From Victivallaceae bacterium (GTDB taxonomy: Bacteria; Verrucomicrobiota; Lentisphaeria; Victivallales; Victivallaceae), in the NCBI GenBank assembly GCA_031549115.1, contig JAVBQJ010000071.1, positions 7,451-71,450 on the forward strand: a stretch of 64,000 bases of DNA. Direction: 5' to 3'. The notes below the pieces were generated by a model. That model ran no database searches. It was not told the DNA's origin and saw nothing but the letters and a program-made list of their open reading frames with translations. Positions 2,176-52,836 of the stretch are shown piece by piece. A program made the translations under genes and the position numbers. The number at the start of each line of letters is the position of its first letter. Position 1 is the first letter of the stretch.

Positions 2176-2203
2176 TTGACTTTTCGCTTTTTTGGCCTAT
2201 AAT
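2176..2203 (+). promoter_or_regulatory. Sigma70-like promoter of pseudopilin cassette 1 (TTGACT, 16-nt spacer, TATAAT)
   Basis: Consensus -35 TTGACT at 2176..2181 and perfect -10 TATAAT at 2198..2203. The same arrangement recurs upstream of the paralogous cassette at 6281..6308. Confidence 0.6.
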
Positions 2204-2236
2204 TGTAAGTAGTTTGTTTTTCGTTTTTTTTACGGT

Positions 2237-2256
2237 TATTTGAGTACGATATCAAA
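2237..2256 (+). promoter_or_regulatory. 20-bp palindromic operator-like site ATTTGAgtacgatatCAAAT in the 5' leader
   Basis: Inverted half-sites ATTTGA/TCAAAT. The identical 20-mer is at 6346..6365 at the same position relative to the paralogous promoter. Confidence 0.55.
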
Positions 2257-2283
2257 TTTTGCAAAAGAGAAGGGACGGCGAAA

Positions 2284-2952
2284 ATGAAAAGAAGGAATCG
2301 ATTTACGCTCATAGAGCTCCTGGTGGTGATTGCGATTATTGCCATTCTTGCCAGTATGTTGCTGCCGGCGCTGAGCAAAGCGCGCGCTGCGGCGCAGAAC
2401 ATCAAATGTGTGGGCAGCATCAAGCAGCTGGCACTGGCGCAAACGTTGTATGCCGGCGACAACAATGACTATTTCTTTCCGGCCTATGACGACGACGATA
2501 AGATATGGTGGATGGACTGGGCGTTGTTGCCGTATGTTTCGTGGGACTTTGTCTTCAAGGGCTGCCCCAATATGTCGCCGTTCAATGAGGGTTATATCTC
2601 CTACGGGTATAACTTCCTGCTGCTTTTCGGATCTTCCGGCAACCGGAGCACCCCCTGTAAAGTCACCGCGGTGGAGAATCCCTCGGAGACCATAATATTG
2701 CAGGACGCCAATCGCGATCTGCCCAACGGAAACTATATCGGCATCGCCCCCTGGGCGGCGGATCTGCAGAAAATGGGCGGCACCTATGCCTCCATCGCGC
2801 ACGACGGCGGAGCGAAATTGAATTGCGCCTGGGTGGACGGCCATGCGTCGACCGAACAAAACAGCAAACTCTGGACTGGCCAAGCCCCCACCGGAAACAC
2901 TTGGTACTATGAGCGCCGGAAAGGTAAAAACCTGGACAGCGGCGAATGGTAA
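2284..2952 (+). CDS. DUF1559 family prepilin-type N-terminal cleavage/methylation domain protein (type II secretion pseudopilin-like)
   Basis: N-terminus [33 protein letters not shown] (prepilin peptidase motif plus hydrophobic helix). C-terminal ...VDGHASTE motif typical of DUF1559. Ribosome-binding site gaaggga precedes the ATG. Confidence 0.85.
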
Positions 2953-3019
2953 GTCGGGTTGCAAAGCCGGAGCAATAAAGCGATTTTTTTTTTGGACAGT
3001 CGGAGCAAGAGGAGTATCT

Positions 3020-5974: not shown

Positions 5975-6290
5975 GCGGTTGTCGAGGAGAAAATGGGGAG
6001 GGCTTCTTGCCCTCCACGCCACCCCGGCAGGGTGCCCCGCGTTACGCTCGCTGACGCGAGCTTACTTTTCGCCCTTGCGCTTCGCGCTGCGTTTACTGCC
6101 GACAATATATGTCCGGTCCCCCGGCTACCCCCTTCAGGACCTACGCCTGTTGTCGGGTTTACCGCCTCCGGCAGGGGACTCCGCATTTCGACATGGTGCA
6201 ATGATTTGCGGTTTGCCGGGATGGAACCGCAAACCGGGAGCGGAATGTCATATAGATTTTGCTTTTTTTCTCCGGCGCTATTGACTTTTT
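5975..6290. repeat. GC-rich hairpin-dense intergenic element related to the repeat at 23949-24480 and 50207-50700
   Basis: Shares the module ccacgccaccccggcagggtgcc with 11860-11890 and, as a reverse complement, with 24440-24460. Several stem-loops are present (gggagggcttcttgccctcc; cggtttgccgggatggaaccgcaaaccg). The six-frame ORFs here (5968..6402 -, 5979..6284 +) have no ribosome-binding site and proline/arginine-rich composition, and are probably spurious. Confidence 0.5.
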
Positions 6291-6308
6291 GTTTTTTTTG
6301 TCTATAAT
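6281..6308 (+). promoter_or_regulatory. Sigma70-like promoter of pseudopilin cassette 2 (TTGACT, 16-nt spacer, TATAAT)
   Basis: Same -35/-10 and spacing as 2176..2203. Confidence 0.6.
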
Positions 6309-6345
6309 TATAAGCAGCTTGTTTCTTCTTTTTTTTTAGAAAAAT

Positions 6346-6365
6346 ATTTGAGTACGATATCAAAT
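6346..6365 (+). promoter_or_regulatory. Second copy of the 20-bp palindrome ATTTGAgtacgatatCAAAT
   Basis: Identical to 2237..2256 and similarly placed downstream of the -10. Confidence 0.55.
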
Positions 6366-6432
6366 TTAAGAAATAGTAACGATTGACGGAAAATACGGAC
6401 AAGAGCCAACATCAAACGAAAGGGATGATGAA

Positions 6433-7128
6433 ATGAAAAAAGGGAGTCGTTTTACACTCATAGAGCTTCTGGTGGTGATTGCGATCATCGCTATTCTCGC
6501 CAGCATGCTGCTGCCGGCGTTGAGCAAGGCGCGCGCCTCCGCGCAGAGCATCAAATGCCTGGGCAATAACAAGCAGATGGCGCTGGGGGCGTTGATGTAT
6601 GCCACCGACAACAATGAGTGGGTGCTGACCGGAGACCGTTCGAAAATGTTGGACGGCAAGGCATGGCCGGAGCAGCTGCGCCGGTACCTGGGCAGCCAGA
6701 AAATATTCGAATGCCCGTCGTACAGCAACGACCGCTATTCCGATACCGGATGGACATTCGACGACGGCGAATTGTACCAGGGTGCATACGGCATGAATGC
6801 CCGGATGGGGGCGGAGGACAATAATCCGCATACGGAAATTCACAAGCTGCCGGGGCCGACCGGCAATACCTTTCCGGTTTTCCTGGAAATCAACGGACCG
6901 TGCGGCCTGGCGTTGATTCACCTGTCCCGCGGCGAATCGGCGGCCAACCTGTGGGGCAAATATACCGACCGGCACAAAAACGGCGGCAACATCGTCTATT
7001 CGGACGGCAGCGCCAGATGGACCAGCTACGATGAATATTCTTCGTTGGTGGATAAGTCGAAAACCGCCGCCGGCGGCAAGATTCCGGGAGACTGGGGTGA
7101 CGCACTGGCGTTCATGCTCGGATACTGA
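6433..7128 (+). CDS. DUF1559 family prepilin-like protein (paralog of 2284..2952)
   Basis: N-terminus [38 protein letters not shown]-terminal ...YSDGSARW motif. Ribosome-binding site aagggatga precedes the ATG. Confidence 0.85.
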
Positions 7129-7158
7129 CCCGGATACGAAAAAAGGATTTGCACAAGA

Positions 7159-10100
7159 ATGAGTAAGTTACGTTTCTGGTACGGACTCCTGGTTTTGCTC
7201 ATCGGAGCCGGTGTGTATGCCGCTTCCGAAAGTCAGAGCTGGCAGGAGAATTTCGACTCCATCGACACGAAGCGCTGGAAGGTGATTCCGGCTTCGGCGG
7301 AGATCGTACCGACCGATCAATTGAGCGCCGCCAACCGGGCGCTGAAGCTGAATCCGGCGTTGGGGCAGCACTATATGACCACGTCGGACAAGTTCATCGA
7401 CGGCAGTTGTGAAATCCGCTTCAAGGCGAAGCGGCCGTCGTCGGGCGAACTGTTCTATTATATCGGCTTCCACGCCTATGAGCCGTGGGTGAAGGCGTTG
7501 TGCTGGATCATGATTCAGGGCGATACCGTCAGCTTCGGCGTCAAAACCCCGGACGGCGTGAGCCGGTCGGAAAAGCTGGCGGACCTGACCGACGGCTGGC
7601 ATACGCTCAAATTGCATTACTCATCCGATGCGATCTCTGCCGAATGGGATGGCGAGAAGACGCTGACCTACGACGACCCGGCGCTGTATTCCAGCGAGCC
7701 GATGCCGTTTTTCATCGGCGCGTATACCGTCGAAGGGACCAAAGATCCCGCCGAACTGATGGTCGATTATCTGAAAGTCACCGGCGGCAAGCCGGCGGCG
7801 ATAATGGCCCCGCGGACATTGACCGATGCCGAAAAAATGGTGATCGGCGTCGATTCCGTGGTGGCGGCGCAGTTGCCAGGCGAACGCTATGCGATCGCGC
7901 TGGACGGTGGCATGCACTGGCAATCGATTGACGCGGACGGTACCGAAATGCTGGCGCCGGACTTCTTCGCGCCGGTGTTCGGAGCGCGGATCGATGGGAA
8001 AAATGTCTTTTCGCACCAGTTCGAAGTCACCGGAGTGAAGCGCTCCGGCGACGCCTTCGCGGTCGAGCTCCTGTACCCGGAATCCGCGACTGCTGCGACG
8101 GTTTCGGGCGCGGTGAAGGACGGCCGCTTCCGGCTGGATCTGCAATTGCGCAATGACGACAAGCAGGAGCATCGGCTGCAGCCGGTGTTCCCGGTGGTCG
8201 GCAGCCTGGCGGTCGGCGGCGACTTCGCCGGAACCGAATACTTCTTTCCGTGGCGCGGCGGCGTCCTGGGGGACAATACCGCGTATTTTTCGACCGAGTA
8301 CGGCGGGCTGGGGTGGACGCAGTTGATGTTCGTGCTGGATCCCGCCTCCGGCCGCGGGCTGTACTTTTATCCGGAGGACGCCTCCGGCCGCTTCAAAGGC
8401 ATGTCGATGATCAAACAATTGATCGATACCAATGTCGACGTGTACCATACCGAATCGGTGATCGCCGAAGAGGTGCCGACGCTGGATATGCTGGAAAACC
8501 GTACCGGGTTGGTGATGAACTATTACTACCGGACCGAAACGGTCGCGCCTGGTGTCGCGGTGGAGGTGCCGGAAACTGTGTTCGGCAGCTGGCGGGGCGA
8601 CTGGAAAGAGCCGATGCGGCTCTATGCCGACTGGATGAAGTCGCAGATGCAGCCGGTGGAGGTGCCGCGCCAGTTCCGCGACAGCTTCACCTGGGGCAAC
8701 TGGCATCCGCCGGCCTATTACGACAAGCAGGCGCAGCGTTACGTCGGCCGCGAACGGCTGGCCGGCGGCGAAGACGCGCTGCAATGGGCCTTCTGGGATG
8801 ACTATGTCGAATATCCGGCCGATGCGAAAATCCCGTCGCTGCAGCGCTACCAGCTCGGCGACTTCGAGGTGAACCGCTCCCGTGGCGGGATGGAAACTTT
8901 CGCGGCCGAAATTGCCCGGATCCGTGAGGTCGGAACCCGCTTCTCGGTCTACATCGACCACCGTTTCTGCTGGCGCGAAACCAAGACCGCGCAGAAGTAC
9001 GCCGACGCGTGGGCGGTCAAGGACCCGAACGGCAAGCCGTACGGTTATACCTCCGATGAAGACTTGTACATGATGTGCTTCTACGATGCGGACAAGTGGG
9101 TGAACTATATGGCCGAAACCTGCCATGGGCTGATTCGCGACACCGGCATGGATACGATTTACCTGGACGAGCTCGGCATCGCGTTTCCCTGCTACAACAA
9201 GCTGCACAGCCATTATCAGGCGGGGGAGTATCCGACCGATCCGGTCGGCCTGGGGAAGGCGATGACGCTGGTACGCAATCGCATGAAAGAGGCCAATCCG
9301 GAAGCGGCGCTGATGACCGAACACGCCGGCAGCGACTATCTGACCCAGTTCTACGACGGTTCGTGGGACCAGACCTTTTACATGCATGCGTTCCCGTTCA
9401 CCGAGAAGTATTATGACGACCAGAAGATCTGCTACTTCCGTTTCATGTTCCCCAACTTCAAGTTGTCGGAATGGGGCGAGAGCCGTGATCACATCCGGCG
9501 CAGCTTCTTCAACGGCATGGGGTGGGACATGGGGGTGACGGACACCGATCTGTCCCGCACTCTGGCGCGGGTGCTGAAGGAGAACGGCGACGCGATTGCC
9601 ACCCTCCATCCGGAACCGATCGTCCCGACCGGCAACCCCGGTCTCTTGGCGAACCGTTTCGACGCCCCCGGAAAAGTGGTTTACACCTACTATAATAACT
9701 CCGAGGCGCCGCTGACCGCCGGAGTCTCCGAAGCCGCGCCGTTTGCCGGGCACTATGTCGAGCTGCGCCACGATGTCATGCTGGATTCCCCGGCCGTCGC
9801 CGTTCCCGCCGGTGAAGTCGCCGCGGTCGCTCTTTATCCGGAATTGCTGAAGCTGGAAGCCGACGGCAACAGCCGCCGGATCACCGCACCGGCGGCGCCG
9901 AATCAGGAGCTCGTAATCTGCGAAGGCGTTGACGATTCGCATTTTCTGCCGCCGCGCGGCACCTGGACGCGGATCGACTTCGCCTCCGGAGAAGCCGCGT
10001 ATGCGCCGCGCGACACCAACGCCAAGTTGATCGTCAAGCTGCTCCGCGACGGCTATCTCGTCGACGAAGTGGGGGGTGGACGGCAAAGACTCGGCGGGCC

Positions 10101-19101: not shown

Positions 19102-19818
19102 ATGAACCGGAAAAATGGGAAAGCTTCCGATTCTCGGAACCGCGGCCGGAGTTTTACTTTGATAGAACTCCTGGTCGTGATCGCGATCATTGCGATTCTC
19201 GCCAGCATGCTGCTGCCGGCCCTGTCCAAGGCGCGGGCGGCGGCGCAGAATATCAAATGTGTCAACAACTTCAAGCAGATCGGCCTGGCGGCGGCGATGT
19301 ACCAGGGCGACAACAAAGACACGCTGGCGACCGGAAGGAATGGATTCTATGGCGGCACCGGCGAATGGGCCGGGCGTTTTCAGGGTTGGTGGCTGGATCT
19401 GGCGGTGACCGGATATCTGCCGGACGATTACGCCTATGACTGGTTCAGTGCCATCAACACGTTGGGCCACAAAGCCCTGGCTTGCCCGGTCATGGTCAAC
19501 AGCGGCGAGCGCTACAACTACGGCATCAACGAACTGCTGACCGGAGAATACTGCGGGTCGTTCCTGTATGGACGTACAAACTACGGAATGGCGACCGGCT
19601 TCGAAAATCCGTCGGGGCGCGCTTATCTGCTGGAGCCGACCGCCCGCGGCGACGGCATGTACATTTATACCACATTGGACACCGGCCGGGCGGTGGAGCG
19701 CGACCGTCACGGCAACTCCAGCAATGTGCTCTTCCTCGACGGCCATGCGGAGAGCATCCGTAAGGACGCGTTGAAAGATAGCCGCATCGAATTCCCCTGG
19801 AACGAAGCCACCGAATAA
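19102..19818 (+). CDS. DUF1559 family prepilin-like protein
   Basis: [41 protein letters not shown]-terminal [14 protein letters not shown] (the DUF1559 LFxDGHV motif). Ribosome-binding site gaaaggagtcgatgtcATG. Confidence 0.85.
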
Positions 19819-23948: not shown

Positions 23949-24480
23949 GGAGTGGAGGGGGGAATGTGGTGATTATGCTAGTGGATGCGGGACCAAGTCC
24001 CGACAACCGCGGGGGCCTGGCCCCCATTCCCCCGGATCGCTCGGCCGCTCGGCTTCACGTATTTGCCGCCAATTGGCGGCAAATACTCTGTTCGCTGTTC
24101 ACTCCCTGCCGGTCGTTCGGGCGCGACCCCCTCAGCGCGCGAAAGCGCGCCGTTCGCCGGGGGAGGCTCCGTGCCGTGCTCCTTGGCGTCTGCTTCGCGC
24201 CGCCAATTCCTAACGGCACGGTCGCGCCTGACCGGCGCTCCCCCGTGCGCGATCGCAGGTTGATGGTTGGCGTCAGGCGTGTGAATCATGTCGAGTCCAC
24301 ATCCACGGCACACCGGCCGTTGGGGGCGCGCCACGGACAGCGGTATGGCACGCCATATCGCCGCGTCCTTTGCGTCTTTTGCGTCATTTTCCATGCGCAC
24401 GCTAGCCCAACCGGCATTCGCAGCAGAGGTGCAGGGTCCTGTGACCCTGCCGGGGGGCATGGGGCCGAGGAGCCCCCACA
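23949..24480 (+). repeat. About 500-bp GC-rich dispersed repeat, copy 1 (MITE/REP-like); contains a 28-bp perfect palindrome
   Basis: About 95% identical as a reverse complement to 50207..50700. The ORFs inside (24288..24551 + here and 50175..50408 - there) encode the same MSSPHPRHTGRW... peptide. Ends carry aatgtggggg/ccccacatt motifs. Palindrome GTATTTGCCGCCAATTGGCGGCAAATAC at 24059..24086. Confidence 0.7.
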
Positions 24481-25678: not shown

Positions 25679-28186
25679 TCAGAAGCCGAATTCCGGCTGA
25701 ACGATGCCGAGATCATCCAACGAATCCCGCTCGGCGGATTGCGGTTCCCGCTCCGGCGGCGGTGGGGGGGGAACTTCCACAGCAGGGCGCAGCGGTCGTT
25801 TCCGTGCCGGACGCCGGGCGTCCGGCGTCTCTTCCAACACGAAATCCCCGGTCTTTGCCGTGTCCGGAGCAACCGCTTCCGGCTGCGGCTCTTCCACGGC
25901 TTCGGTTGTTTCGATGCTCTCCACAACTTCAACGGTTTCCGTTACTTCGACAACCTCTGCAACTTCGACGGTTTCCGTTATTTCGATGCTCTCCACGACT
26001 TCGACGGTCTCCGCAATTTCAACGGTTTCCACGATCTCGACGGTTTCCGTTACCTCGATGGTCTCCACGACTTCGACGATTCCGGGCGCCGTTTCCGGCA
26101 CTTCCACGCTACCGCTGTCGACATCGTCGTCATCGGTGCCGTTCGACTCGCGCGGCGCCGCATCGGCGGCGAGCAGGACTGCCATTTCCTCCGGCTCCAG
26201 ATAGCGCTGCCAGGTCAATTTTTCCAGCGATTTGCCGTTGAAAAGCATCAGGCCTCGGGCTTTGGCGGAACGGACCGCCAGCGTCAGCACGTTGAACTCC
26301 TGCTTTTCCTTGCTGCGTTTGTCCGCGACGACGGCTTCGTAAACCGCGTCCGGGCGCGGCGTGAACAAATCCACCCGGCAGTTTTCCGGGCACAGATTGT
26401 AAACGCGGTCGGTGATGAATTTGTCGATTTTGCAGCGCTTGCCGTAAAACTTCCCGGTTTTGTTTTCCCGGTATACCACCCCGAACTCGATGGCCGGATC
26501 GTATTTCCGGAAGTCGTACAGCTTGCCGATGAAGATCTTTTCCGGGCGCGGAATGATCTTATATGCGCCGTTGCGCTCGAGGCACAACAGCTTGTCGAAT
26601 TCATTGACCAGTACGCTGTCGTCGCTCTTGACACCGGTGCCGATGTAGCCGTTTTTCCGGTCCCAACCGACTTTGATGTTGTTGAGCGCGGCTTCGCGCG
26701 GGTCGATCTTTTCCAGATTTTCGATTTCGGTGCGGCGCGGGAAACGGGGGCCGTACTTTGCCAGCAGCGCTTCGAGGTACTTGATTGCGTAGGATTTCAG
26801 ATGCTTGAGGTTCTTTTCGACCGTGTCCATCTGGGCCAGGATATCGGCGATCTCCTCCTGGTTCTTGCGGATGTCGAACAGCGAAATCCGCCGGATCTGC
26901 AACGCCAGCAGCTTCTCGATGTCTTCGGGGGTGATGTCGCGGCGCAGCATGTGCCGGAACGGCGCCAGTCCCTCCAACACCGCCAATTGCACCGCGTCGG
27001 CGGTCACGCACTCCTCGATCTTTTTGTAAATCCGGTTCTCGATGAAAATCTGCGCCAGCGTTTTGGAGTGGAACAATTCGCTCAGCCGTTCGTATTCCAA
27101 CTCCAGTTCGCGCTGCAGATAATACAGCAGCTTTTCGGTGTTGCGCCGGATCACGCTGTCGACATTCATCTCCACCGGGTGGCCTTCGCAGATCACCATC
27201 ATGTTGACCGAGATCGACTTCGAGCAATCAGTATAGGTATAAAGCGCCTGCAGCGCCTTTTCCGGGTCGTAACCGCGGGTCGGCACGATTTCGATCTCGA
27301 CCTTTTCGGCGGTATAATCGTTGATCGTCGCGATCTTGATCTTGCCCTTTTCCACCGCGCGCTCGATCGACGCGATCAGGCTTTCGGTGGTGGTGGAGGC
27401 CGGAATTTCATGGATCAGGAGTTTGCGCCCGTCGATGTCGATTTTCGCCCGCAGAATGACCTTGCCGTTGCCTTTCGCGTATTCGCGCACGTCCATCAGC
27501 CCGCCTTGCAGGAAGTCGGGGTAAAGCTCGAAGTCTTCGCCGCGCAGCACCGCGATCTGGGCCTGCAGGAGTTCATTGAAGTTGTGCGGCAAAATCCGCG
27601 TGCTCATCCCGACCGCGATGCCTTCGGTGCCGAGCATCAATAGCGACGGGATTTTCACCGGCAGCACCACCGGCTCCTGGTTGCGGCCGTCGTAGGAATC
27701 GACCAATTCGGTGATGCTGTTGTTGAACAGCACCTCTTTGCCCAGCGGCGACAGCCGGCACTCGATGTAACGCGGCGCCGACGCGCAGTCGCCGGTGTAG
27801 ATATTGCCGAAGTTCCCCTGCCGGTCGATGAAATATTCCTTGTTGGCCAAAACCACCAGCGCATCGCCGATGGAGGCGTCGCCGTGCGGGTGAAACTGCA
27901 TGGTGTGGCCGATCACGTTGGCGACCTTGTGGAATTTGCCGTCGTCGAGGCGCATCAGGCTCCACAGGATGCGCCGCTGCACCGGTTTGAGGCCGTCGTC
28001 GACATCCGGGATGGCGCGGTCTTTGATCACGTAGCTCGCGTATTCCAGGAAGTTGCGGTCGATCATCCGCGACAGATATTGATTGGTATTCTGGTCCCGC
28101 TGCGCTTCGACCGCTCCCGAATCCAACGCTTCCGGCTCGCTGTCGCTGCCGGCGGCCTCATACTTGATTTCTTCGTCCGTGGTCAT
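25679..28186 (-). CDS. Type IIA DNA topoisomerase subunit A (GyrA/ParC family; ParC-like, no GyrA-box seen) with acidic tandem-repeat C-terminal tail
   Basis: N-terminal breakage-reunion domain: AIPDVDDGLKPVQRRILW...HPHGD...IAVGMST. C-terminal ~60 aa is a hexapeptide repeat (VETIEV/TETVEI...). ATGA overlap with the upstream subunit B gene. Confidence 0.85.
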   Translation of the reverse strand: MTTDEEIKYEAAGSDSEPEALDSGAVEAQRDQNTNQYLSRMIDRNFLEYASYVIKDRAIPDVDDGLKPVQRRILWSLMRLDDGKFHKVANVIGHTMQFHPHGDASIGDALVVLANKEYFIDRQGNFGNIYTGDCASAPRYIECRLSPLGKEVLFNNSITELVDSYDGRNQEPVVLPVKIPSLLMLGTEGIAVGMSTRILPHNFNELLQAQIAVLRGEDFELYPDFLQGGLMDVREYAKGNGKVILRAKIDIDGRKLLIHEIPASTTTESLIASIERAVEKGKIKIATINDYTAEKVEIEIVPTRGYDPEKALQALYTYTDCSKSISVNMMVICEGHPVEMNVDSVIRRNTEKLLYYLQRELELEYERLSELFHSKTLAQIFIENRIYKKIEECVTADAVQLAVLEGLAPFRHMLRRDITPEDIEKLLALQIRRISLFDIRKNQEEIADILAQMDTVEKNLKHLKSYAIKYLEALLAKYGPRFPRRTEIENLEKIDPREAALNNIKVGWDRKNGYIGTGVKSDDSVLVNEFDKLLCLERNGAYKIIPRPEKIFIGKLYDFRKYDPAIEFGVVYRENKTGKFYGKRCKIDKFITDRVYNLCPENCRVDLFTPRPDAVYEAVVADKRSKEKQEFNVLTLAVRSAKARGLMLFNGKSLEKLTWQRYLEPEEMAVLLAADAAPRESNGTDDDDVDSGSVEVPETAPGIVEVVETIEVTETVEIVETVEIAETVEVVESIEITETVEVAEVVEVTETVEVVESIETTEAVEEPQPEAVAPDTAKTGDFVLEETPDARRPARKRPLRPAVEVPPPPPPEREPQSAERDSLDDLGIVQPEFGF
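25870..26110. repeat. Intragenic 18-bp tandem repeat (about 10 units) encoding the acidic [VI]ET[VI]E[VI] tail of topoisomerase subunit A
   Basis: Units such as ttccgttacttcgacaac / ctctgcaacttcgacggt / ttccgttatttcgatgct are visible on the + strand. Translated on the minus strand they give VETIEVTETVEIVETVEIAETVEVVESIEITETVEV... Confidence 0.7.
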
Positions 28187-31995: not shown

Positions 31996-32040
31996 CGCCG
32001 GTCGGAACGGGAACAACCGTCTGACCGGCGTGTTTTTTTA
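31996..32040 (+). terminator. Rho-independent terminator of the rpsB-tsf operon
   Basis: cgccggtcggaacgggaacaaccgtctgaccggcg hairpin followed by tgttttttt. Confidence 0.7.
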
Positions 32041-32054
32041 TCGTCATGAGATAA

Positions 32055-32300
32055 CAAAAAAATAGAGCCGCCATTCATGGCGGCGGTCTGCTCTCCGTCA
32101 TACGGAGGCGCGGTCCAGCAGGCGAATACTGCTGGTCGATGCGAAGCGAAAACGAGGGGCTTGTCCCCGAGGGGGAAGAGCAAGCTCACGAATGTGAGCG
32201 TAGCGAGAGCGGAAGCCACCCAAGGTAGCGATGGTGTAGGGAGAGCGAAGCGATTCCCGGAGCATAGAGCGGACGAGGCATCGCATCGGCGATGAGGACA
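32055..32300 (+). repeat. About 230-bp hairpin-rich repeat, family B copy 1 (candidate REP element or small ncRNA)
   Basis: aaaaaaaTAGAGCCGCcattcatGGCGGCGGTCTGCtCTCCGTCATACGGAGGCGCGGTCCAGC... Shares this ~70-bp head and downstream modules (gccacccaaggtagcgatggtgtag) with 42213..42443 and, inverted, with 34020..34262. Confidence 0.6.
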
Positions 32301-32963: not shown

Positions 32964-33337
32964 AAATCGCGGAGCTTGCTGCGCGTGCGATCAACGACAA
33001 ATTCGGGCAGGACATCATGGTTCTGGAGGTGGGAAGCCTGACCAGCATTGCCGATTATTTCGTGCTGTGCACCGCCAATTCCGGGCCGCATCTGCGGGCG
33101 CTGACCTCCGAAGTGGAGGACCGGTTGCGGAAGGAAATGAAGGTCCGGCCGCAGCGCATCGACGGTGACGTCGAAAGCGCGTGGATCACGATGGATTACG
33201 CCAGTGTCCTGGTGCACGTGATGACGCCGGAAACCCGGCAGAAATATCAATTGGAAAGCTTGTGGAGCGACGCGCCGCATATCGACGCCATTCGTTCGGC
33301 GATCGACAATATGCCGCTCCCGGTACCGGCGCAATAA
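32945..33337 (+). CDS. rsfS: Ribosomal silencing factor RsfS (Iojap family)
   Basis: ALKIAELAARAINDKFGQDIMVLEVGSLTSIADYFVLCTANS...WITMDYASVLVHVM. Overlaps the nadD 3' end, the typical nadD-rsfS arrangement. Confidence 0.85.
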   Translation: MENKALKIAELAARAINDKFGQDIMVLEVGSLTSIADYFVLCTANSGPHLRALTSEVEDRLRKEMKVRPQRIDGDVESAWITMDYASVLVHVMTPETRQKYQLESLWSDAPHIDAIRSAIDNMPLPVPAQ

Positions 33338-33345
33338 GAGGTGGC

Positions 33346-33996
33346 ATGTATAGATTCCCGTCACATCAGGATTGGAATGAATTCCAATGGGAGGCGGAAA
33401 TCCGCAAGGATGAGTTGCGCATTTCGCGTTACTTCTCCGCTCTCGCTTCGTGCCTGGATTTGCCCGGCGAAGAAGATTCCATTTACAAGCGTCTGATGGC
33501 GCAGCCGGAGCTGGTGCCGACCGGTGTCGACGCCAAACTGGCGGACATGCGGGATATTTTCGAGGATTCCCAGGACGAAGACGACGAAGAGTGGGAAAAT
33601 ACCGGCGACTGGCGCCGCAAACCGGGCACCGAAGCCTGCCGCCGGGTGGAATACCTCGCGTCCGAATGGAATGCGCTGGTCGCCGGCGCGGTCACGGGGC
33701 CGCATCTGGCGGAAGCCGTCGGCATCACCTGTCTTTTTGGCCGGTTGCTGTCGCGGGTCTACAATCTGACCGAGGGAGATGCTTCGACTCCGGTGGCGCT
33801 GCGCGTCAGTTTGTTGAAGCGCGTCCTCGCCGACGTCAACGACTTGCTCGGCGCGCTGTCCGGCTGGAGCAAGCGCAAAAATATTCCGTCCGACCGGATC
33901 GCTTGGCTGCTCGATCAGCTGCAGCACTTCCGGGAAGCCGCGGTGGACTCGCTGTCGAGCTTCCGCGCCAATCCGGGCGAGTGGGCCGAAGAATAA
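33346..33996 (+). CDS. Hypothetical acidic protein (216 aa), last gene of the nadD-rsfS operon
   Basis: ATG at 33346 with ribosome-binding site agaggtggcATG. No recognisable motif. Contains the acidic stretch DSQDEDDEEWEN. The ORF track start at 33181 overlaps rsfS. Confidence 0.5.
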   Translation: MYRFPSHQDWNEFQWEAEIRKDELRISRYFSALASCLDLPGEEDSIYKRLMAQPELVPTGVDAKLADMRDIFEDSQDEDDEEWENTGDWRRKPGTEACRRVEYLASEWNALVAGAVTGPHLAEAVGITCLFGRLLSRVYNLTEGDASTPVALRVSLLKRVLADVNDLLGALSGWSKRKNIPSDRIAWLLDQLQHFREAAVDSLSSFRANPGEWAEE

Positions 33997-40976: not shown

Positions 40977-42194
40977 GTGAACAGCTGGCGGCGGAATCTG
41001 TTCTGGGTCTGGGCGTCGCTGTTTCTGGCCATGGCCGGATTCGGCTTCGCTTATCCGGTACTGCCGTTCTTCCTGGTGGACGGCTATGGCGTGACCGATC
41101 CGGGGACGCGGGATTTTTTCGTCGCGATGTTCGCCTTTGCCGGTAACTTCGGCTTCCTGTTGTTTTCGCCGTTGTGGGGGCGCCTGGCCGACCATTATGG
41201 GCGAAAGATGATGATGACCCGCGCCAATGCCTGCTCGGCGGTGCTGCTGCCGCTGATTGCGGTCATGCCGGGGCCGTGGTGGCTGGTGAGTTTGCGTTTC
41301 TGCATCGGTGCCTTTGCCGGGGTGGCGTCGGCGGCGCTGACGCTGGTGGCGTGTTCGACGCCGGAAAAGCATCGCGGCATGGCGATGGGGGCGATCAGCT
41401 CGGCGATCTTCTCCGGCAATCTGGCCGGGACGGTGGCGGGCGGCTTCTGCGCCAGCGCGTTTGGCTATAGCGCCACATTCGGCTGCTGCGGCGCCATCAT
41501 GCTGGTGGCGGCTTTTATCTCTCTGACGCTGGTCGAAGAGCGCAATCGTCCGGTACGGCCGGCGGCGCCGGTCCAACTGCTGCCGCGGTGGCACATTCCG
41601 CGCCTGGGCAAAATCTGGTATTTGATGCTGTTGATGCTGGCGATGGGGTACGTGCAGCAGGTGGACGGGCCGTTCCTGCCGATCCTGGTGGATCTGGTGC
41701 TGCAGTCGGATTCGTCCGAGGCGTTGCGCTGGAGCGGGATACTCGGCGGCGCCTGTGCGGCGGCGGGGATTGCGGGGGGCTTCCTGATCGGGATGTGCGC
41801 CGATCGCTTCGCGGGGGACAAGGTGGGATTGGTGATCTGCATCGCGGGGGCGGTGTTCATGCTGCCGCAGGCGTTCTGCGGGTCATTGGGGTGGCTTTTC
41901 GGGGAACGGATGCTGATGACCTTTTTCGTCAGCGGCTTGAGTCCGATCACGCAGAGCTGGCTGTCGTTGACGACGCGGGCGGAGGATCGCGGTTCCTACT
42001 TCGGTTATGCGACCAGCTTCCGGGCGTTGGGGTGGCTGGCGGGGGGTGTCGGCGGGATGGCGGTGACGTATTGGTGCGGGACGCGGGCGGTGTTCGCGTC
42101 GGCGGCACTGAGCCTGCTGCTGATGGCCGCATTGCTCCACTGGGTGCAGAAAAAACTGCCATTCCCACTATTGCGCAAAAAAATAAAAAATTGA
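40977..42194 (+). CDS. MFS transporter
   Basis: Twelve predicted transmembrane segments. MFS signature-like GRLADHYGRK between TM2 and TM3. Confidence 0.8.
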   Translation: MNSWRRNLFWVWASLFLAMAGFGFAYPVLPFFLVDGYGVTDPGTRDFFVAMFAFAGNFGFLLFSPLWGRLADHYGRKMMMTRANACSAVLLPLIAVMPGPWWLVSLRFCIGAFAGVASAALTLVACSTPEKHRGMAMGAISSAIFSGNLAGTVAGGFCASAFGYSATFGCCGAIMLVAAFISLTLVEERNRPVRPAAPVQLLPRWHIPRLGKIWYLMLLMLAMGYVQQVDGPFLPILVDLVLQSDSSEALRWSGILGGACAAAGIAGGFLIGMCADRFAGDKVGLVICIAGAVFMLPQAFCGSLGWLFGERMLMTFFVSGLSPITQSWLSLTTRAEDRGSYFGYATSFRALGWLAGGVGGMAVTYWCGTRAVFASAALSLLLMAALLHWVQKKLPFPLLRKKIKN

Positions 42195-42212
42195 AAATAA
42201 AAAGAAGAAAAT

Positions 42213-42443
42213 AAAAAAAATAGAGCCGCGAAGCGGCGGTTTTGCACTCCGTCATACGGAGGCGCGGTCCAGCGGCGAATACGCTGGTCGATCCCAGAAG
42301 GGATCGAAATCCAGGGAAGGATCGCCGGGAGGCGATCCGGAGCCACCCGAGGAAGCGATGGTATAGATTTGACCGGACGCGTGAGCAACGGTCAAATCTA
42401 TACACGGAGCGTACGAGGCGCCGCACCGGCGGCGAATAATCCC
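42213..42443 (+). repeat. Family B repeat, copy 3
   Basis: aaaaaaaaTAGAGCCGCgaagcGGCGGTtTTGCACTCCGTCATACGGAGGCGCGGTCCAGCggcgaatacgctggtcgat...gccacccgaggaagcgatggtatagatttgaccg...cggtcaaatctatacacggagcgtacgaggcgccgc. Lies between the convergent MFS and DUF4838-like genes. Confidence 0.6.
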
Positions 42444-44717
42444 CTATCGCTTCTTCAACACGATCCGCTCGATCCAGACGGCATTCCCGTCATCCGGCTT
42501 GCCGAACGGGTACGCCGGACCGGTGAATTTGACGCTGACCCACAATTCGCAGACATCGTCGCCAACGGCGTCGGCGACGACGGCATTGAGCGGAAATTGC
42601 ACCGTCCAATCACGGGTGAAGTAGACATAGGCGCTCGGCTGCGGCCGGATGTCGGCGACCTTGTACCAGTGATAACCGGGCCCCGGAACTTCGGCGGCGG
42701 CGATGGAGCGGCCGCCGGAGGTTTGCTCGGTCAGCGGCACATACATCGCACCGGCAAGCGGCAGTTCGTTGTCGCGCGGAACCTTGACCGCGCAACCGGC
42801 TTCGGCGTCGGCGTCACTGACGACACGGAGGCCGCCGTACAATTGCGATTGGTCGGCAGGCAGGTCGATATAATCCTGCCCGGCGAACTTCGAAGGCGCC
42901 CGGAAGGGGGTATATTCCATTCCGGAAACCAATTCATATTCGACATTGGCCTGCTGCTGGTAGTGCGCCTGTTTGGCCGGGTCGACGATGGTGCGGATGG
43001 CCTGCGTCCAGGTGTCATGCGCCCGTTTGGCGATGATGTCGCGCTGCAGCGGGCAACTTTCCGGCGTCCCGCCCGTCAGTTCGACGTATCCGGCGATCAA
43101 CCGGCGCAGGTTCAGCGAACAGATGCGGTCGAGATTCAGCCGAGCGCGGCGAACGCGCTCGAACAGCACCGGGTCACCGGCGACCGCGGCCTCGGCGTCG
43201 TCGAAGAGCTGCTGCGACCGGAGCGCGACCGGATAATCGACATGGGTGAACGCCGACGGACCGGCGAACCAGCCGATGTTGCTCCCGTGACGATTGACCG
43301 ACTCCCGGAGCAGTTGCCGATACGCGTCGATCATCGGCGCCGCGGCGCCGTAATACCCTTGCAGAAACGTCCGGTAAAGCGCGTCGAAGTCGGCGTCGGG
43401 GTTTTCCATCAATTTGGCTTCGAGCCACACATTCAACGCGTGCATGTCGGCGCACTCCGGGGATTCATGCTCGAAGAAAAGATACTGAACTTGGTTGTCC
43501 TGGTAGGTACGGATATTTTCCGCCAGCGTGAATTCGTGCGGGAAGGGGCCGGTCGGAAGCATGTAAGTGATCGAATAATCCCAGATTCCGAGCTGCGCGG
43601 CGTGCTCGGACCAGCCGCACAAAAGCTCGAGAAACGCACGATTTTCCGGGGCGGAAAACGACTGCGCCTGGTTGGTCGCGGTGTCGCACAGCCGAATGAT
43701 GACATTGTCGGCGGCCCGGAGGGAAGCGGGGACTTTTTCGGTGTGATAATATGCGAGTGTGCTCAACATCAATTCCGGGCGGAATGCTTTCAAGCGCGCC
43801 GCCATATCGTTGACGCATTCGAGCAATGGGCCCGCTTCGGAATCCTCGCGCAGCACGATGGCCTGGCAGTCGGCACACTGGCACGGATTGCGGGCATCGT
43901 TGGCGGAGAGGTCGTAAATCAACGGCGGCGGGGTGCCGCCGGCCTCTGCCTGCGCTTCATCGGCGCGGATGAACTCCTGCAGACGGCGGAACATTTCGTC
44001 GCGCATCGCCGGATTGACAAGACACAACTGCGAGGTCGGTCCCGGCGTGCGCACGCCATTGCGCAACGCATAATATTCCGGGTGTTCGGCGAAATATTTC
44101 TCCTGCGGGAAATACGGATCGAACGTATGCACGAAGTACGGTGCGCCGTAGGTGACGCTGCCGCCGAACTCCGCACCGATGGCCTGGTCGCCGTCGCGGT
44201 TGAGACGGTTCCGGGCGGCGAAACGGCCACCGTCCGGGATCATATTGTTCCAGCTGCGATAGATGTCGCGCTGCCGGAAGTACGGCTGCCCGGCGAGCTC
44301 CAGCCCGGGCAGGGTGAAACCGGCCGGATGCGCCGGTACGCTCTCCTCCTGCTGCGTCCACCAATGTATGCCGAGCACATCCTCAAGGAAGTGATAAACC
44401 GCATACAGACTGCCGCGGGAGCCGCCGCCGACGAGCAGGATATTACTCCCGGAACTGCGGACGATCCAGCTTTCTTCGGGCATCCCGGCCACATCGATTC
44501 CGGCATTGCGCGCGGCATCGCCGTTGCCAATGAAGAAAACAGCCTCTTCTCCGGTGGCGGTTTTCAGCGTATCGCCGACCGACGCTTTCAGATAATGCTC
44601 CAGCTCCCGGGCTGCGGTCTGCTCGACCGCGGTCGGTTGTTCCGGAAGCACAATCTCCCACGCCATCGCAGCGCTGCCGAGCAGCATGAGGCCCAATATT
44701 CCAGATACGATCCGCAT
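42444..44717 (-). CDS. Secreted putative glycoside hydrolase, DUF4838-like (tentative)
   Basis: Signal peptide MRIVSGILGLMLLGSAAMA. N-terminus WEIVLPEQPTAVEQTAARELEHYL resembles the conserved start of DUF4838 proteins (recalled from memory). 757 aa. Immediately downstream of a DUF1559 gene, 10-bp gap. Confidence 0.55.
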   Translation of the reverse strand: MRIVSGILGLMLLGSAAMAWEIVLPEQPTAVEQTAARELEHYLKASVGDTLKTATGEEAVFFIGNGDAARNAGIDVAGMPEESWIVRSSGSNILLVGGGSRGSLYAVYHFLEDVLGIHWWTQQEESVPAHPAGFTLPGLELAGQPYFRQRDIYRSWNNMIPDGGRFAARNRLNRDGDQAIGAEFGGSVTYGAPYFVHTFDPYFPQEKYFAEHPEYYALRNGVRTPGPTSQLCLVNPAMRDEMFRRLQEFIRADEAQAEAGGTPPPLIYDLSANDARNPCQCADCQAIVLREDSEAGPLLECVNDMAARLKAFRPELMLSTLAYYHTEKVPASLRAADNVIIRLCDTATNQAQSFSAPENRAFLELLCGWSEHAAQLGIWDYSITYMLPTGPFPHEFTLAENIRTYQDNQVQYLFFEHESPECADMHALNVWLEAKLMENPDADFDALYRTFLQGYYGAAAPMIDAYRQLLRESVNRHGSNIGWFAGPSAFTHVDYPVALRSQQLFDDAEAAVAGDPVLFERVRRARLNLDRICSLNLRRLIAGYVELTGGTPESCPLQRDIIAKRAHDTWTQAIRTIVDPAKQAHYQQQANVEYELVSGMEYTPFRAPSKFAGQDYIDLPADQSQLYGGLRVVSDADAEAGCAVKVPRDNELPLAGAMYVPLTEQTSGGRSIAAAEVPGPGYHWYKVADIRPQPSAYVYFTRDWTVQFPLNAVVADAVGDDVCELWVSVKFTGPAYPFGKPDDGNAVWIERIVLKKR

Positions 44718-44727: not shown

Positions 44728-45483
44728 TCAGTTGGTGAAGCTCTGCGGCAACCGGTTCATGCCCTGATCGAAGTAGACCGCGGCCGTGATCCAGTTCCAG
44801 TCCGCATCCGGACGCCATTTGCCACTCTTGGGCAGCGTTTTCAACTCTTCGCCGGAGATGACGCCGACGTGGCCGTCAATAAACGCGATGTTGATTTTGT
44901 TGTTGTGTGCCGCATAAAAGCTCGGGTGGGTCCACCAGTAAATAATACCGCTGCCGCGGAAACCTCCGCCCATCGGTTGCAGCGCATCGGTTACCATCCA
45001 ATAGCCGGAAGGGTTTTCCGGGGCAGATGCGGCGATACTATGCATCTGGACGTTTCCTCCGGGACTTCCCTGGGTGAAGTTTTTATCAAGGGCATTGGTC
45101 GCATACTGGTCATAATATTTGTCCGGTTTGGCAGGGACGCTGACCTGGTTGGGGCAACGGACCAACGTACTGTCCATGTCTGCCGGCAGGTAATTCAATG
45201 TCAGACTGCCGGCGACCCAGGTGTTGATCTTGTTTTCCCACATGTCGTTGCCGTAAATCTGCATCCAGTAGTATTCGGGACCACCGATGTAGGTCAGAAT
45301 CTGATCATTGTTGTCGACGCTGTACAACATGAATCCCTGCATGATCTGCTTCTGGTTGTTGACGCATTTGATCGCCTGCGCCGCCGCCCGCGCTTTGGAC
45401 AGCGCCGGCAGCAGCATGCTGGCTAGGATTGCAATAATTGCAATCACGACGAGCAGTTCGATAAGTGTGAAAGTTTTTTTCAT
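44728..45483 (-). CDS. DUF1559 family prepilin-like protein
   Basis: [42 protein letters not shown]-terminal [14 protein letters not shown]. Confidence 0.85.
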
Positions 45484-50206: not shown

Positions 50207-50700
50207 GGGGGAGAATGAATGTGGGGAACTCCTCGTCCCCCACACCCCGCATCACAAGACCCTGCACCTCTGCTGCGAATGCCGGTTGGGCTAGTGTGCG
50301 CATGGAAAAGGACGCAAAGGACGCAAAGGACGCGGCGATATGGCGTGCCATACCGCTGTCCGTGGCGCGCCTCCAACGGCCGGTGTGCCGTGGATGTGGA
50401 CTCGACATAACTCACACGCCTAACGCCAACCATCAACCTGCGATCGCGCACGGGGGAGCGCCGGTCAGGCGCGACCGTGCCGTTAGGAATTGGCCGCATC
50501 GCGGCCAAGGAGCACGGCACGGAGCCTCCCCCGGCGAACGGCGCGTTTTCGCGCGCTGAGGGGGTCGCGCCCGAACGACCGGCAGGGAGTGAGCAGCGAA
50601 CAGAGTATTTGCCGCCAATTGGCGGCAAATACGTGAAGCCGAGCGGCTGAGCGATCCGGGGGAATGGGGGCCGGGCCCCCGCGGTTGCCGGGGTGCAATG
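50207..50700 (-). repeat. About 500-bp GC-rich dispersed repeat, copy 2 (inverted relative to 23949..24480)
   Basis: See copy 1. Palindrome GTATTTGCCGCCAATTGGCGGCAAATAC at 50605..50632. Starts immediately after the GH36 stop codon. Confidence 0.7.
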
Positions 50701-51189: not shown

Positions 51190-52836
51190 TTACGCCTTCG
51201 GCGTCTCGGGCGCTTGCGGCTCTTCGGAGGCGTTGGACACCTTGCCGAGATAGCCCGGCAGGTCCAGACCGGCCATCGCGGCCACGTCATGCAGCGGCGG
51301 CAAGCTCTGCATCATGCCGGACAGAAAATTCGCAGTCGAGGTTTTGCCGTCCTGCCGGCCGCCGTCCCAGACGGTGAACTTGTCGATCTTGATATTCTTG
51401 ATCGCTTCGGTTTGCAAACCGACGATTTCCTGCAATTTTTCGATCAGCAGCATCCGGCCGGCGGCTTCGCTGTCCTGGCCGCAGGCTTCGATGATCTTCT
51501 GGTAACCGTCGCCCTTGGCTTTCAGGATTTCGAAGTTACCGCGCGCTTCGGCGGAGAGCTTGGCATAAATCGCATCGGCGGCACCGTTGGCTTCGCGGCG
51601 CAGACGTTCGGCTTCGGCTTCGGCCTGGATTTCGATCTGCTGCTTATGGATTTCCGCCGGTACGATCACTTCGGCGCGCTGTTTTTCCATTTCCATGCCG
51701 GCGCGGGTTTCCTGTACCGCTTTTTCGGCTTCGAACTGCGCCTGCTCGATCTTGGCGGCGGCAACCCGGCGCACGGTTTCGGCACGGCGGTAGGCTTCGG
51801 CTTCGGCTTCGGCACGGGTCGCGTTGGAGTTGGCGATTTCAATCGACGCGACGTTTTCACCCTGCGTAGCGACCGAGTCGGCCTGCTTCACCGCGATACG
51901 TTTTTTCTGCTCCGCCTCGGCTTCACCGGCCATCGCGGTGGCATTGGCGCCGGCAACCGCGATACGCTCCTGCTTCTTCGCCTCGGCTTCACCGGCTATC
52001 GCCAGCGCGTCGGCCTGCTTCACCGCGATACGCTTGTTGCGGTCGGCGTCGGCTTCCCCGGTGGCCGCCTGGGTTTCCGCCTGGGCGACCGCGATACGGC
52101 GCTCCTGGGCGGCACGGGCTTCGCCGGAAACCGCTTCGGCTTCGGCCTGCGACACCGCGATGCGCTCCTGCTTCTTCGCGTCGGCTTCCCCGGTACTGCC
52201 CTTACGCTCTTCTTCGGCGACGTCGATTTTCGCTTTGTTGATCGCTTCGCTGGCGGCGCGCTTGCCGATGGCGTCGATATAGCCGCTGCTGTCGGTGATG
52301 TCGGTGATGTTGACGTTCAACAGCTCCAGGCCGATCTTTTTCAATTCTTCGGCGACGTTGTTTTCCACCTGGCGCAGAAAAGTCTCGCGGTCGGCGTTGA
52401 TCTCTTCGATGGTCATCGACGCGATCACCAGACGCAACTGTCCGAGAATGATGTCCTTGGACAGATTGGCGATCGCTTCGGGGCTCTGGCCGAACAGACG
52501 CTCGGCGGCGTTCCCCATGATCTCCGGCTTGGTGCTGACGCCGACGGTGAATACACTCGGGACGTTGATGCGGATATTCTGCTTGCACAACGCCTTGTCG
52601 AGGTTGACTTCCAACTGCAACGGGCGCAGGGAAATATAGCCGTAATCCTGAAATACCGGCATCACGAACTTGGCGCCGCCGTGGATACAGTGCGCCGCCT
52701 GGTTGCTTTTGGTGCGCCCGTAAATGACCATGATCCGGTCCGACGGACATTTGCGGTAACGCGACGCGAACATGATAAAAAGAACCAATAAGACGACTAC
52801 CGCCATCACAATGTAAAGTGCAATTTGTCCACCCAT
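51190..52836 (-). CDS. Flotillin-like SPFH/band-7 protein (FloA/YqiK family)
   Basis: N-terminal transmembrane helix, SPFH domain, then a long Ala/Glu-rich coiled-coil with repeats (AEAEA...RIAVAQAE...RIAVKQAD), diagnostic of flotillins. Confidence 0.85.
   Translation of the reverse strand: MGGQIALYIVMAVVVLLVLFIMFASRYRKCPSDRIMVIYGRTKSNQAAHCIHGGAKFVMPVFQDYGYISLRPLQLEVNLDKALCKQNIRINVPSVFTVGVSTKPEIMGNAAERLFGQSPEAIANLSKDIILGQLRLVIASMTIEEINADRETFLRQVENNVAEELKKIGLELLNVNITDITDSSGYIDAIGKRAASEAINKAKIDVAEEERKGSTGEADAKKQERIAVSQAEAEAVSGEARAAQERRIAVAQAETQAATGEADADRNKRIAVKQADALAIAGEAEAKKQERIAVAGANATAMAGEAEAEQKKRIAVKQADSVATQGENVASIEIANSNATRAEAEAEAYRRAETVRRVAAAKIEQAQFEAEKAVQETRAGMEMEKQRAEVIVPAEIHKQQIEIQAEAEAERLRREANGAADAIYAKLSAEARGNFEILKAKGDGYQKIIEACGQDSEAAGRMLLIEKLQEIVGLQTEAIKNIKIDKFTVWDGGRQDGKTSTANFLSGMMQSLPPLHDVAAMAGLDLPGYLGKVSNASEEPQAPETPKA

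Follow-up and report, generated by a model that had tools for sequence, protein, structure and literature searches.

Repeat copies in a Victivallaceae genome

The DNA analysed here, referred to below as the window, is a 64,000-nt stretch from a Victivallaceae bacterium (Lentisphaerota; assembly GCA_031549115.1, contig JAVBQJ010000071.1, positions 7,451 to 71,450), and it carries three copies of a structured, non-coding repeat that lie close to housekeeping and other genes. The organism's EF-Ts protein places it in Victivallaceae and is closest to that of a sampled relative at 76% identity. Copy A (32055-32296, + strand) lies between the terminator of tsf (31996-32039) and the start of nadD, 27 nt before the likely ATG at 32322, with the rpsB-tsf operon upstream and nadD followed by rsfS downstream. 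Copy B (42213-42446, + strand) begins ∼20 nt past the stop codon of an MFS transporter gene (TGA, 42192-42194), and its 3′ end reads AATCCCCTA, the CTA of which (42444-42446) is the TAG stop codon of a convergent DUF4838 glycosidase gene. Copy C (34262-34009, − strand) begins ∼24 nt past the stop codon of hrpA (TAG, 34288-34286) and faces a convergent open reading frame (ORF) on the + strand (33181-33996). Each of the three is oriented like its upstream gene. An earlier note on this DNA had placed every copy at a gene 3′ end or in a convergent gap, which holds for copies B and C, the two that occupy convergent gaps, whereas copy A stands outside any such gap. The longest ORF of nadD starts at 32310; alignment with the NadD protein of the relative, together with an upstream GAGG, suggests that the real start is the ATG at 32322. 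No record was found of the exact 217-residue nadD product of the window.

The three copies are collinear and represent one element of ∼230 nt. Their presence at these places, first reported in the earlier note, is confirmed by blastn and by two invariant sequences. The 26-mer CTCCGTCATACGGAGGCGCGGTCCAG occurs exactly three times in the window, at 32093 (+), 42247 (+) and 34220 (−), and has an expected count of zero in 100 shuffles with up to three mismatches permitted. The 24-nt block CCRCCCRAGGWAGCGATGGTRTAG likewise occurs exactly three times, with none expected in shuffled sequence when three mismatches are permitted. Copies B and C are 77% identical over ∼250 nt (blastn), while copy A, the most diverged, matches them over its opening ∼85 nt, in the 24-nt block and over a final ∼30 nt; identity among the window copies ranges from 70 to 77%. 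Two covariance models were built, R1 and R2, the latter covering the conserved core described below. Copies B and C were detected by blastn and by both models, and copy A scored 99.8 bits with R1 and 65.2 bits with R2. No fourth copy was found in the 64-kb window by blastn or by either model, with filters off or at default. The motifs that had been described for the repeat, TAGAGCCGC-N-GCGGC, the palindromic CTCCGTCATACGGAG and GGTCCAGC..GCGAAT..CTGGTCG, are all present as written.

The window copies fold into seven hairpins (P1 to P7), with predicted stabilities well beyond those of dinucleotide shuffles (z=−7.6, −5.4 and −3.5 for the three copies). Comparison of the copies shows that the element opens on its sense strand with an A-rich leader ending in ATAGA (B 42195-42224; A 32055-32066; C 34268-34242). 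The head hairpin P1 follows (B 42225-42237; A 32067-32084; C 34241-34229), which has a GCCGC/GCGGC stem of 5–6 bp and a variable loop (GCCGC-GAA-GCGGC in copy B). P2 (B 42242-42267; A 32088-32113; C 34225-34200) consists of an outer helix of 4 bp, P2a (YUGC/GCGG; UUGC/GCGG in copy B), that has U.G wobbles on the sense strand and surrounds an inner helix of 5 bp, P2b (CUCCG-UCAUA-CGGAG). A single U separates P2 from P3 (B 42269-42287; A 32115-32135; C 34198-34178), which has the general form CCAGCnn-GCGAAUW-nnGCUGG in the window copies (CCAGCG-GCGAAUA-CGCUGG in copy B), and a second U separates P3 from P4. P4 is a variable hairpin on a C-G/G-C base and is followed by AAAUCC (B 42289-42312; C 34176-34138; A 32137-32155). 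In copy B it reads CGAUCCC-AGAA-GGGAUCG, and the version in copy A is degenerate and contains GCGAAGC.

The remainder of the long form is more variable. P5 (GGAUCGCC-GGGA-GGCGAUCC; B 42319-42338; C 34130-34111) has 8 bp and a GGGA loop, with one U-A pair of copy B replaced by C-G in copy C, and in its place copy A has a different hairpin (32184-32199). The 24-nt block (B 42343-42366; A 32216-32239; C 34106-34083) is mostly unpaired, and at its 3′ end it extends into P6. This long hairpin is perfectly paired over 15 bp in copy B (42361-42403) and over 12 bp in copy C (34088-34046); it differs in sequence between the two and has a weak counterpart in copy A (∼32239-32258). Beyond P6 lie GAGCGNACGAGGC and the tail hairpin P7 of 5–6 bp (B 42419-42434, CGCCGC-ACCG-GCGGCG; C 34030-34015, CACCGC-CCCA-GCGGUG; A 32279-32294, CAUCGC-AUCG-GCGAUG), in which two pairs are altered on both sides (alignment pairs 234-247 and 235-246).

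Between copies B and C, hairpins P3, P4, P5, P6 and P7 differ by paired substitutions or paired insertions only, and no single disruptive stem change was seen in P3 to P7. The exchange of a distal stem on which the earlier note had based its case for covariation, GTATAGATTTGACCG/CGGTCAAATCTATAC in copy B against GTGTAGATCGGA/TCCGATCTACAC in copy C, is real and compensatory. The stem belongs, however, to a lineage-specific tail and not to the module conserved in the family, which comprises only ∼70 nt of the ∼230 nt that the note had treated as one unit.

The repeat is non-coding. Six-frame translations of the copies are inconsistent, with stop codons and frame shifts that differ from copy to copy, and no genes are called on any copy in a collection of 15 billion proteins (seven candidate ORFs checked). 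The possibility that it is a coding sequence or a gene fragment was therefore rejected, since the frames are broken differently in each copy and no called protein matches.

The conserved core in related lineages

A model of the first 78 positions detected a full-length relative on a metagenome contig (L014; the same sequence was also fetched as L052) whose EF-Ts is the same as that of Victivallis sp. Marseille-Q1083. P2b and P3 of this relative differ from those of the window copies by compensatory changes. Its tail cannot be aligned with the P5–P7 tail of the window form; homology of the two was rejected and the tail is thus lineage-specific. A structure-aware pattern was derived from the features common to the window and L014, GCGGTCCAGC-N(0-4)-GCGNAT-N(1-5)-GCTGGTCG, and retrieved 39 metagenome loci, ∼25 of which are true relatives and 14 coding false positives. 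The relatives that carry the core are gut and digester bacteria. An exact 22-mer gave zero matches in the metagenome collection, and the pattern GTCATACNNNNNGCGCGGTCCAG, which proved too narrow, yielded only chance matches in the genome collection, from Mycobacterium, Streptomyces and similar organisms.

Only P2a, P2b, P3, P4 and AAAUCC are common to all relatives, and these three adjacent hairpins with the AAAUCC segment are the ∼70-nt module that defines the family. P3 is its most conserved part, with a nearly invariant CCAGC/GCUGG stem and a 7-nt loop, GCGRAUW. P1 and the P5–P7 tail are features particular to the window lineage, and most relatives have no P1. Most short-form relatives also have an A-rich leader in front. 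P4 is often GCGAAGC (copy A, L024, L049 and L027b), a sequence that forms an exceptionally stable DNA mini-hairpin. The setting of the core differs between lineages. In the window form it occupies the 5′ part, whereas in an abundant G+C-rich lineage, whose host is an unplaced member of the Planctomycetes–Verrucomicrobia–Chlamydiae (PVC) group, it is the last module, at the 3′ end, of a non-coding repeat of 330–450 nt that itself occurs in modular variants. A low-G+C group (L022, L032 and L046), assigned to Victivallales by protein names, has an A/U-rich leader and the core alone. Copies tend to cluster, with three within 10 kb in the window, four in 2.5 kb on L046, three on one 744-kb contig and two per locus in L027, L035, L038 and L040. 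A diverged core subfamily with the junction GCCGGU and the P3 loop CGGAAU (L035 1072-1136 (−), L038 7012-7076 (−) and L038 3939-4004 (−); 32–34 bits with R2) was also observed in the same genomes as the main form.

The helices of the core are kept by compensatory change across lineages. In a MAFFT alignment of 23 sequences, 93.3% of the cells in paired columns are paired and 9 of 16 pairs change on both sides, values reached by none of 500 shuffles. R2 spans the core in full and was derived from 20 seeds; a search of 323 kb with it gave 39 copies, 30 of them distinct. When these 30 sequences were aligned with R2, 93.7% of cells were paired and 14 of 21 pairs changed on both sides, and none of 500 shuffles reached the observed value on any of five measures. 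The R2 alignment is fitted to the model and so biased toward the structure, but the independent MAFFT result agrees. Control structures that were slid by 1–3 columns gave only 26–43% pairing. P3 is 98.9% paired, with its outer five pairs and loop nearly invariant and its inner pairs covarying, while P2b and P4 vary freely and P2b changes on both sides at all five pairs in the relatives. The conclusion that stems are retained through two-sided changes, which had been drawn from three copies, is thus borne out in 30 distinct homologous sequences. The accompanying proposal that such covariation reflects selection on RNA or DNA structure stands as far as the retention of stems is concerned, and covariation by itself is equally compatible with RNA and with single-stranded DNA.

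The element matches no known family. As the earlier note had proposed, Rfam was searched: Rfam 15 gave no match in the window at gathering thresholds and only chance-level matches (E∼1–6) around copies A and C under permissive settings, and on six related loci it detected nothing but a tRNA. Literature searches by taxon, motif terms and sequence strings returned nothing relevant. A phage or plasmid origin was rejected because blastn against plasmid and phage collections gave no match and two pattern scans of viral contigs were empty. Several resemblances suggested by eye were also discarded. Segments similar to 5S rRNA (GCGCGGU, GAAGUG.GAAA, GUAGCG..GAUGGU and GAGAG) gave local alignments with the E. 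coli 5S sequence that scored no higher than shuffle means. The likeness to Alu/7SL RNA (GCCGGGCGCGGU and similar) was rejected by inspection, as it touches only the variable P2b strand of one subfamily. A hammerhead reading of CUGGUCG..CGAAA fails, as the sequence lacks the core bases A6, G8 and A9 and has no Rfam match. A retron msr-msd RNA, which has flanking a1/a2 inverted repeats and a reverse-transcriptase gene directly behind it, was excluded because no such gene is present, the downstream genes being nadD, the convergent DUF4838 gene and the convergent ORF.

Genomic sites, transcription and signs of mobility

Copies of the element occupy intergenic sites that are empty in relatives. In the closest relative of the window organism the tsf-nadD gap is 90 bp long and contains a terminator only, and no copies were found in the tsf loci of five other Victivallaceae (82 kb in total). 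Similarly, the FAD-oxidoreductase gene that follows one of the L032 copies has orthologues (70–81% identical) that abut an IclR-type gene with no element between. Within one species, the metagenome strain L014 has a copy and the isolate L013 is without it; the comparison was rejected as a clean empty site because the region is rearranged and cannot be aligned. Four short-read contigs (L011, L025, L039 and L041) end inside a copy, as is expected for repeats.

The Victivallis-type member (L052 7321-7593, equivalent to L014 2145-2417, − strand) has a perfect 21-nt inverted repeat, ACGCCGTGTGCAAGTTTTTTT, at its two ends, and the hexamer TAAGTG adjoins each of these on the outer side. These ends look like terminal inverted repeats with a target-site duplication, the textbook mark of cut-and-paste transposition. 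ACGCCGTGTGCAAGTTTTTTT was not found elsewhere in the analysed DNA. Searches of the window and all loci by tblastn with IS200 TnpA and the E. coli REP-associated tyrosine transposase (RAYT), a weak test, gave nothing below E=0.04.

Other neighbours of the core were recorded. A mobile-element-like region on L046 (2308-4753) contains four short cores in 2.5 kb, together with an integrase fragment, a 518-residue protein with no Pfam match (provisionally ParB-like) and ArdC (PF08401). Two of these copies flank a small ORF in inverted orientation, and one lies immediately ahead of the ribosome-binding site of ardC. On L038 an IS110-family transposase gene (4214-5260, −) lies 830 nt from a copy, as a separate neighbour on the other strand; members of the IS110 family often target repeated hairpins. 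Paralogous genes for 140-residue proteins with no Pfam match (58–100% identical) stand tail-to-tail with copies in L027, L038, L053 and L026, and in L027 and L038 they stand between two copies in direct orientation. The 3′ end of the G+C-rich form (L016, L017, L020, L027, L029, L038 and L054) consists of CGAAATCCCC, a C-rich segment of 0–25 nt and then CCGCTA(C), and at about half of the distinct sites a convergent gene stops exactly in that CTA (TAG on the gene strand). Window copy B (42435-42446) ends likewise, at the DUF4838 stop codon. The position of these ends suggests either insertion at or next to a TAG or a stop codon supplied by the element. A possible truncation of the GH38 gene of L016 by its copy was considered, and the C-termini of the orthologues are too variable to indicate one.

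The sense strand is weakly preferred. Pairs in the core include 12 G.U and 6 A.C on that strand. In each of the three window copies its predicted fold is also 3–11 kcal/mol more stable than that of the antisense strand, and it presents stable purine-rich loops (GGGA, GAAA and GAA). By eye, six of the seven copies that lie between co-directional genes share the orientation of these genes. The long stems are perfect Watson–Crick helices with no G.U pairs and therefore carry no strand information. Consensus scans detected no sigma-70-like promoter beside any copy, which for a PVC-group bacterium is weak evidence as only the sigma-70 type was covered, and no sense-strand terminator after P7 in any of the three copies. 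Within these sigma-70-type scans the element thus has neither the promoter of its own nor the same-strand terminator of a free-standing small-RNA gene. On the opposite strand, by contrast, all three copies contain GCCGC(C)..(G)GCGGC followed by TCTATTTTTT, reproducing the terminator-like head hairpin that the earlier note had described; the intrinsic-terminator pattern is confined to P1. Window P1 resembles intrinsic bidirectional terminators in being a G+C hairpin of 5–6 bp that is preceded by an A-run and, when read on the opposite strand, followed by a T-run. It is unlike them in having a 4-nt spacer, TCTA, between stem and T-run, and the element as a whole is unlike a terminator in that only P1 (∼13–18 nt of 230) fits and is missing from most relatives.

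The window contains other repeats that are separate from this element. A second family (2282-2468, 6431-6617, 19133-19319 and, on the − strand, 45292-45472) is coding and corresponds to the 5′ ends of paralogous genes with a prepilin-type N-terminal methylation motif (PF07963, with DUF1559), two of which lie in a tandem duplication of a ∼4.1-kb gene block (2130-5970 and 6235-10080, 70–94% identical). Two adjoining inverted repeats (189 and 246 nt, ∼445 bp per site) occur at 23999-24444 and 50252-50692, 26 kb apart and 96–97% identical. The ORFs at both sites have no Pfam match, and the repeats could be either the termini of a mobile element or a gene duplicated recently in inverted orientation. 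A 66-nt tandem repeat (51878-52259; five copies, 60–71% identical) and an 18-nt periodic repeat (25891-26081) each lie inside a long ORF and probably encode repetitive protein segments.

Nature and significance of the element

We favour, with about even confidence, the interpretation that the element represents an uncatalogued family of interspersed structured repeats, of the repetitive extragenic palindromic/bacterial interspersed mosaic element (REP/BIME) kind or like miniature inverted-repeat transposable elements (MITEs), that occurs in Victivallales and related bacteria of the PVC group and is transcribed together with neighbouring genes. In kind it appears to be comparable with REP/BIME, ERIC, BOX and Correia sequences and with other elements that resemble MITEs. 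Of the two identities offered by the earlier note, a small non-coding RNA or a REP element, the structured non-coding repeat is retained and the REP-like option fits better, because no sigma-70-like promoter and no sense-strand terminator was found, the position is not conserved, assemblies break within copies and the L052 member has terminal repeats. The classical definition of a REP, however, does not apply.

Like the REP/BIME sequences of Proteobacteria, the element is extragenic and multi-copy, with G+C-rich hairpins, mosaic modules and stems kept by paired changes; it often lies just past stop codons, in convergent gaps or between the genes of operons, and when transcribed it would be expected to affect mRNA 3′ ends and termination. 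Unlike REPs, which are single hairpins of 20–40 nt with a conserved GTAG immediately 5′ and depend on a RAYT whose gene is typically flanked by REPs, it has a conserved unit of 70 nt in which three hairpins are clustered and a 7-nt loop is invariant. The host phylum also differs, and a weak tblastn test on the 64 kb of the source genome and all loci gave no RAYT. No GTAG adjoins the conserved hairpins P2 to P4 in the alignments. All three window copies have ATAG ahead of P1, and in copies B and C the hairpin P7 is followed by CTAT; neither P1 nor P7 is conserved in the family. Classical REPs are present in hundreds of extragenic copies per genome; the density here is three copies per 64 kb in the window and reaches four per 2.5 kb on L046.

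MITE-like repeats (Correia/NEMIS of Neisseria, ERIC/IRU, and RUP and BOX of Streptococcus pneumoniae) share with the element a length of 100–250 nt, an intergenic position, a modular construction (as in BOX) and strong predicted folding, and they can carry terminator or promoter activity. The L052 member, with its 21-nt terminal inverted repeats and 6-bp flanking direct repeat, is the only form of the element, together with its L014 equivalent, that has the ends expected of a MITE. The window copies lack terminal repeats and target duplications, and at 70–77% identity they are far from the near-identity of MITE copies; no copy is joined to a transposase gene as an autonomous element would be. 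Conservation of a core across lineages of very different G+C content by compensatory substitution is also unusual for MITEs. HEARO/IscB omega RNA, STAXI and the small self-cleaving ribozymes provide a further comparison. They resemble the element in their many copies with no fixed gene neighbour, conserved junction bases and covarying stems, and copies of the element are found near ardC. In contrast to them, the element has no Rfam match, no adjacent IscB or TnpB gene, no guide-like variable segment and no recognised ribozyme core. The element is accordingly filed in the broad kind of interspersed repeats, and in neither the REP nor the MITE family, because no GTAG adjoins the conserved hairpins, no RAYT was found in the weak tblastn test, and the window copies lack the terminal repeats and target duplications of a MITE.

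As an interspersed repeat, the core would have acquired different hairpin modules in different lineages, the long form of the window being the core with a leader and P1 before it and P5–P7 behind. Copies may have spread by a transposition or recombination route, with the near-invariant P3 and the junction bases serving as a recognition site that a protein supplied in trans would read on the folded single-stranded nucleic acid. Once inserted past or between genes, copies would be co-transcribed, mostly on the sense strand, and the transcribed stack of hairpins could act as a barrier at mRNA 3′ ends or as a processing site. In the window copies, P1 and the T-run would also be predicted to stop transcription that comes in along the opposite strand. 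The window copies are old, as judged from their 70–77% identity, yet still fold, which argues that the structure is under selection in place and is not the remnant of a recent burst.

Several observations weigh against this interpretation. Mobility is inferred from sequence, and no clean pair of filled and empty sites in otherwise identical sequences was obtained. The age and divergence of the copies in the source genome contrast with a recent MITE burst, and the window copies have no flanking direct repeats and no terminal inverted repeats, the only inverted matches between their flanks being chance ones of 6–9 nt. The tblastn search, a weak test, gave no transposase, RAYT or IS200-type gene in the vicinity of any copy. 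P3 and the junctions are conserved in sequence across widely differing G+C content and are accompanied by compensatory stems, which is equally the pattern of a functional RNA. The strand evidence is weak, the long stems are perfect Watson–Crick helices that contain no G.U pairs, and copies were counted within 64 kb of the source genome and not per genome.

A possible but less probable explanation is that the core is a functional structured RNA, such as a protein-binding platform, a processing signal or a small catalytic RNA, and that the copies are selected paralogous genes or cis-elements. The long form would then be an RNA of ∼230 nt, transcribed from the A/T-rich leader or cut from read-through transcripts. 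Strong covariation in four helices, together with conservation of the unpaired bases in junctions and loops, classically marks such an RNA, and the continued folding of old, diverged copies, the GGGA, GAAA and GAA loops, the excess of G.U over A.C pairs and the better folding of the sense strand point the same way. Several loci have sense-oriented copies 25–200 nt upstream of start codons, and the motif occurs inside a mobile-element-like region next to ardC, as do many small ribozymes and structured motifs. On the other hand, the consensus scans found no promoter-like site upstream and no sense terminator behind, the neighbouring genes are unrelated (tsf/nadD, hrpA, the MFS transporter, GH38, FAD oxidoreductase, LacI and ArdC), orthologous sites lack the element and the 82 kb of other Victivallaceae DNA contain none. 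No ribozyme or riboswitch model matches and the hammerhead core CUGANGA was not seen by eye. The multiple copies, the shuffling of modules and the breaks in assemblies are typical of repeats.

A broader proposal, which we regard as rather unlikely, is that the core constitutes a novel class of structured nucleic acid with a function of its own in Lentisphaerota and further members of the PVC group. It could be an active RNA, with self-cleavage, processing or recruitment of a specific protein as its activity, or the cis-recognition module of an undescribed mobilisation system. Either way, chromosomes as well as mobile elements would carry it, and it would be more than a passive repeat.

It is more doubtful still that the core acts as folded single-stranded DNA, as a recombination, nicking or priming site of mobile elements analogous to attC sites, the ends of IS200/IS605 elements, oriT hairpins or single-strand initiation signals, with the chromosomal copies representing such sites or their relics. 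The long stems are all perfect Watson–Crick helices, as DNA hairpins would be, and P4 is often the highly stable GCGAAGC mini-hairpin. Four copies lie in the integrase/ParB-like/ArdC region of L046, the IS110-family transposase gene of L038, from a family given to hairpin targeting, is 830 nt from a copy, and the window form has hairpins at both ends. Palindrome-associated elements derived from IS200/IS605 have subterminal hairpins at both ends that are conserved in the family, no inverted repeats or duplications, and a fixed target of 4–5 nt on the 5′ side. The end hairpins of the window form, P1 and P7, are similar in sequence; L052 is without P1, the short forms are without P7, and it is the internal core alone that is conserved in the family. 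The window copies, moreover, lie among housekeeping genes with no mobile-element genes nearby, there are no arrays like those of integron cassettes, no HUH/Y1 enzyme and no TnpA or TnpB was found in the analysed DNA (a weak test), and the U.G wobbles of P2a suit RNA slightly better. Finally, three local duplications of an ordinary bidirectional terminator, or chance or convergence with no family meaning, would account for the terminator-like head hairpin with its A/T runs and for the two copies in convergent gaps, but this explanation has almost no probability and is refuted by the shuffles (the invariant 26-nt block and 230 nt of collinear similarity exceed chance), by homologous cores in ∼25 loci from unrelated samples and lineages, and by covariation in a conserved part that is not the terminator-like hairpin.

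Guts and anaerobic digesters commonly harbour Lentisphaerota, a group that has received very little molecular study and for which neither an interspersed repeat nor a non-coding RNA family of this shape has been catalogued. The covariance model of the core can be used to flag breaks in metagenome assemblies that are caused by the repeat, to annotate intergenic regions that are now blank and to search for the enzyme responsible for spreading the element. Should the core turn out to be an active RNA, it would represent a new class of motif, whereas an ordinary repeat family would be useful and unsurprising. If the element shapes mRNA 3′ ends or termination, it would affect the neighbouring housekeeping genes, which in this genome are tsf, nadD-rsfS and hrpA.

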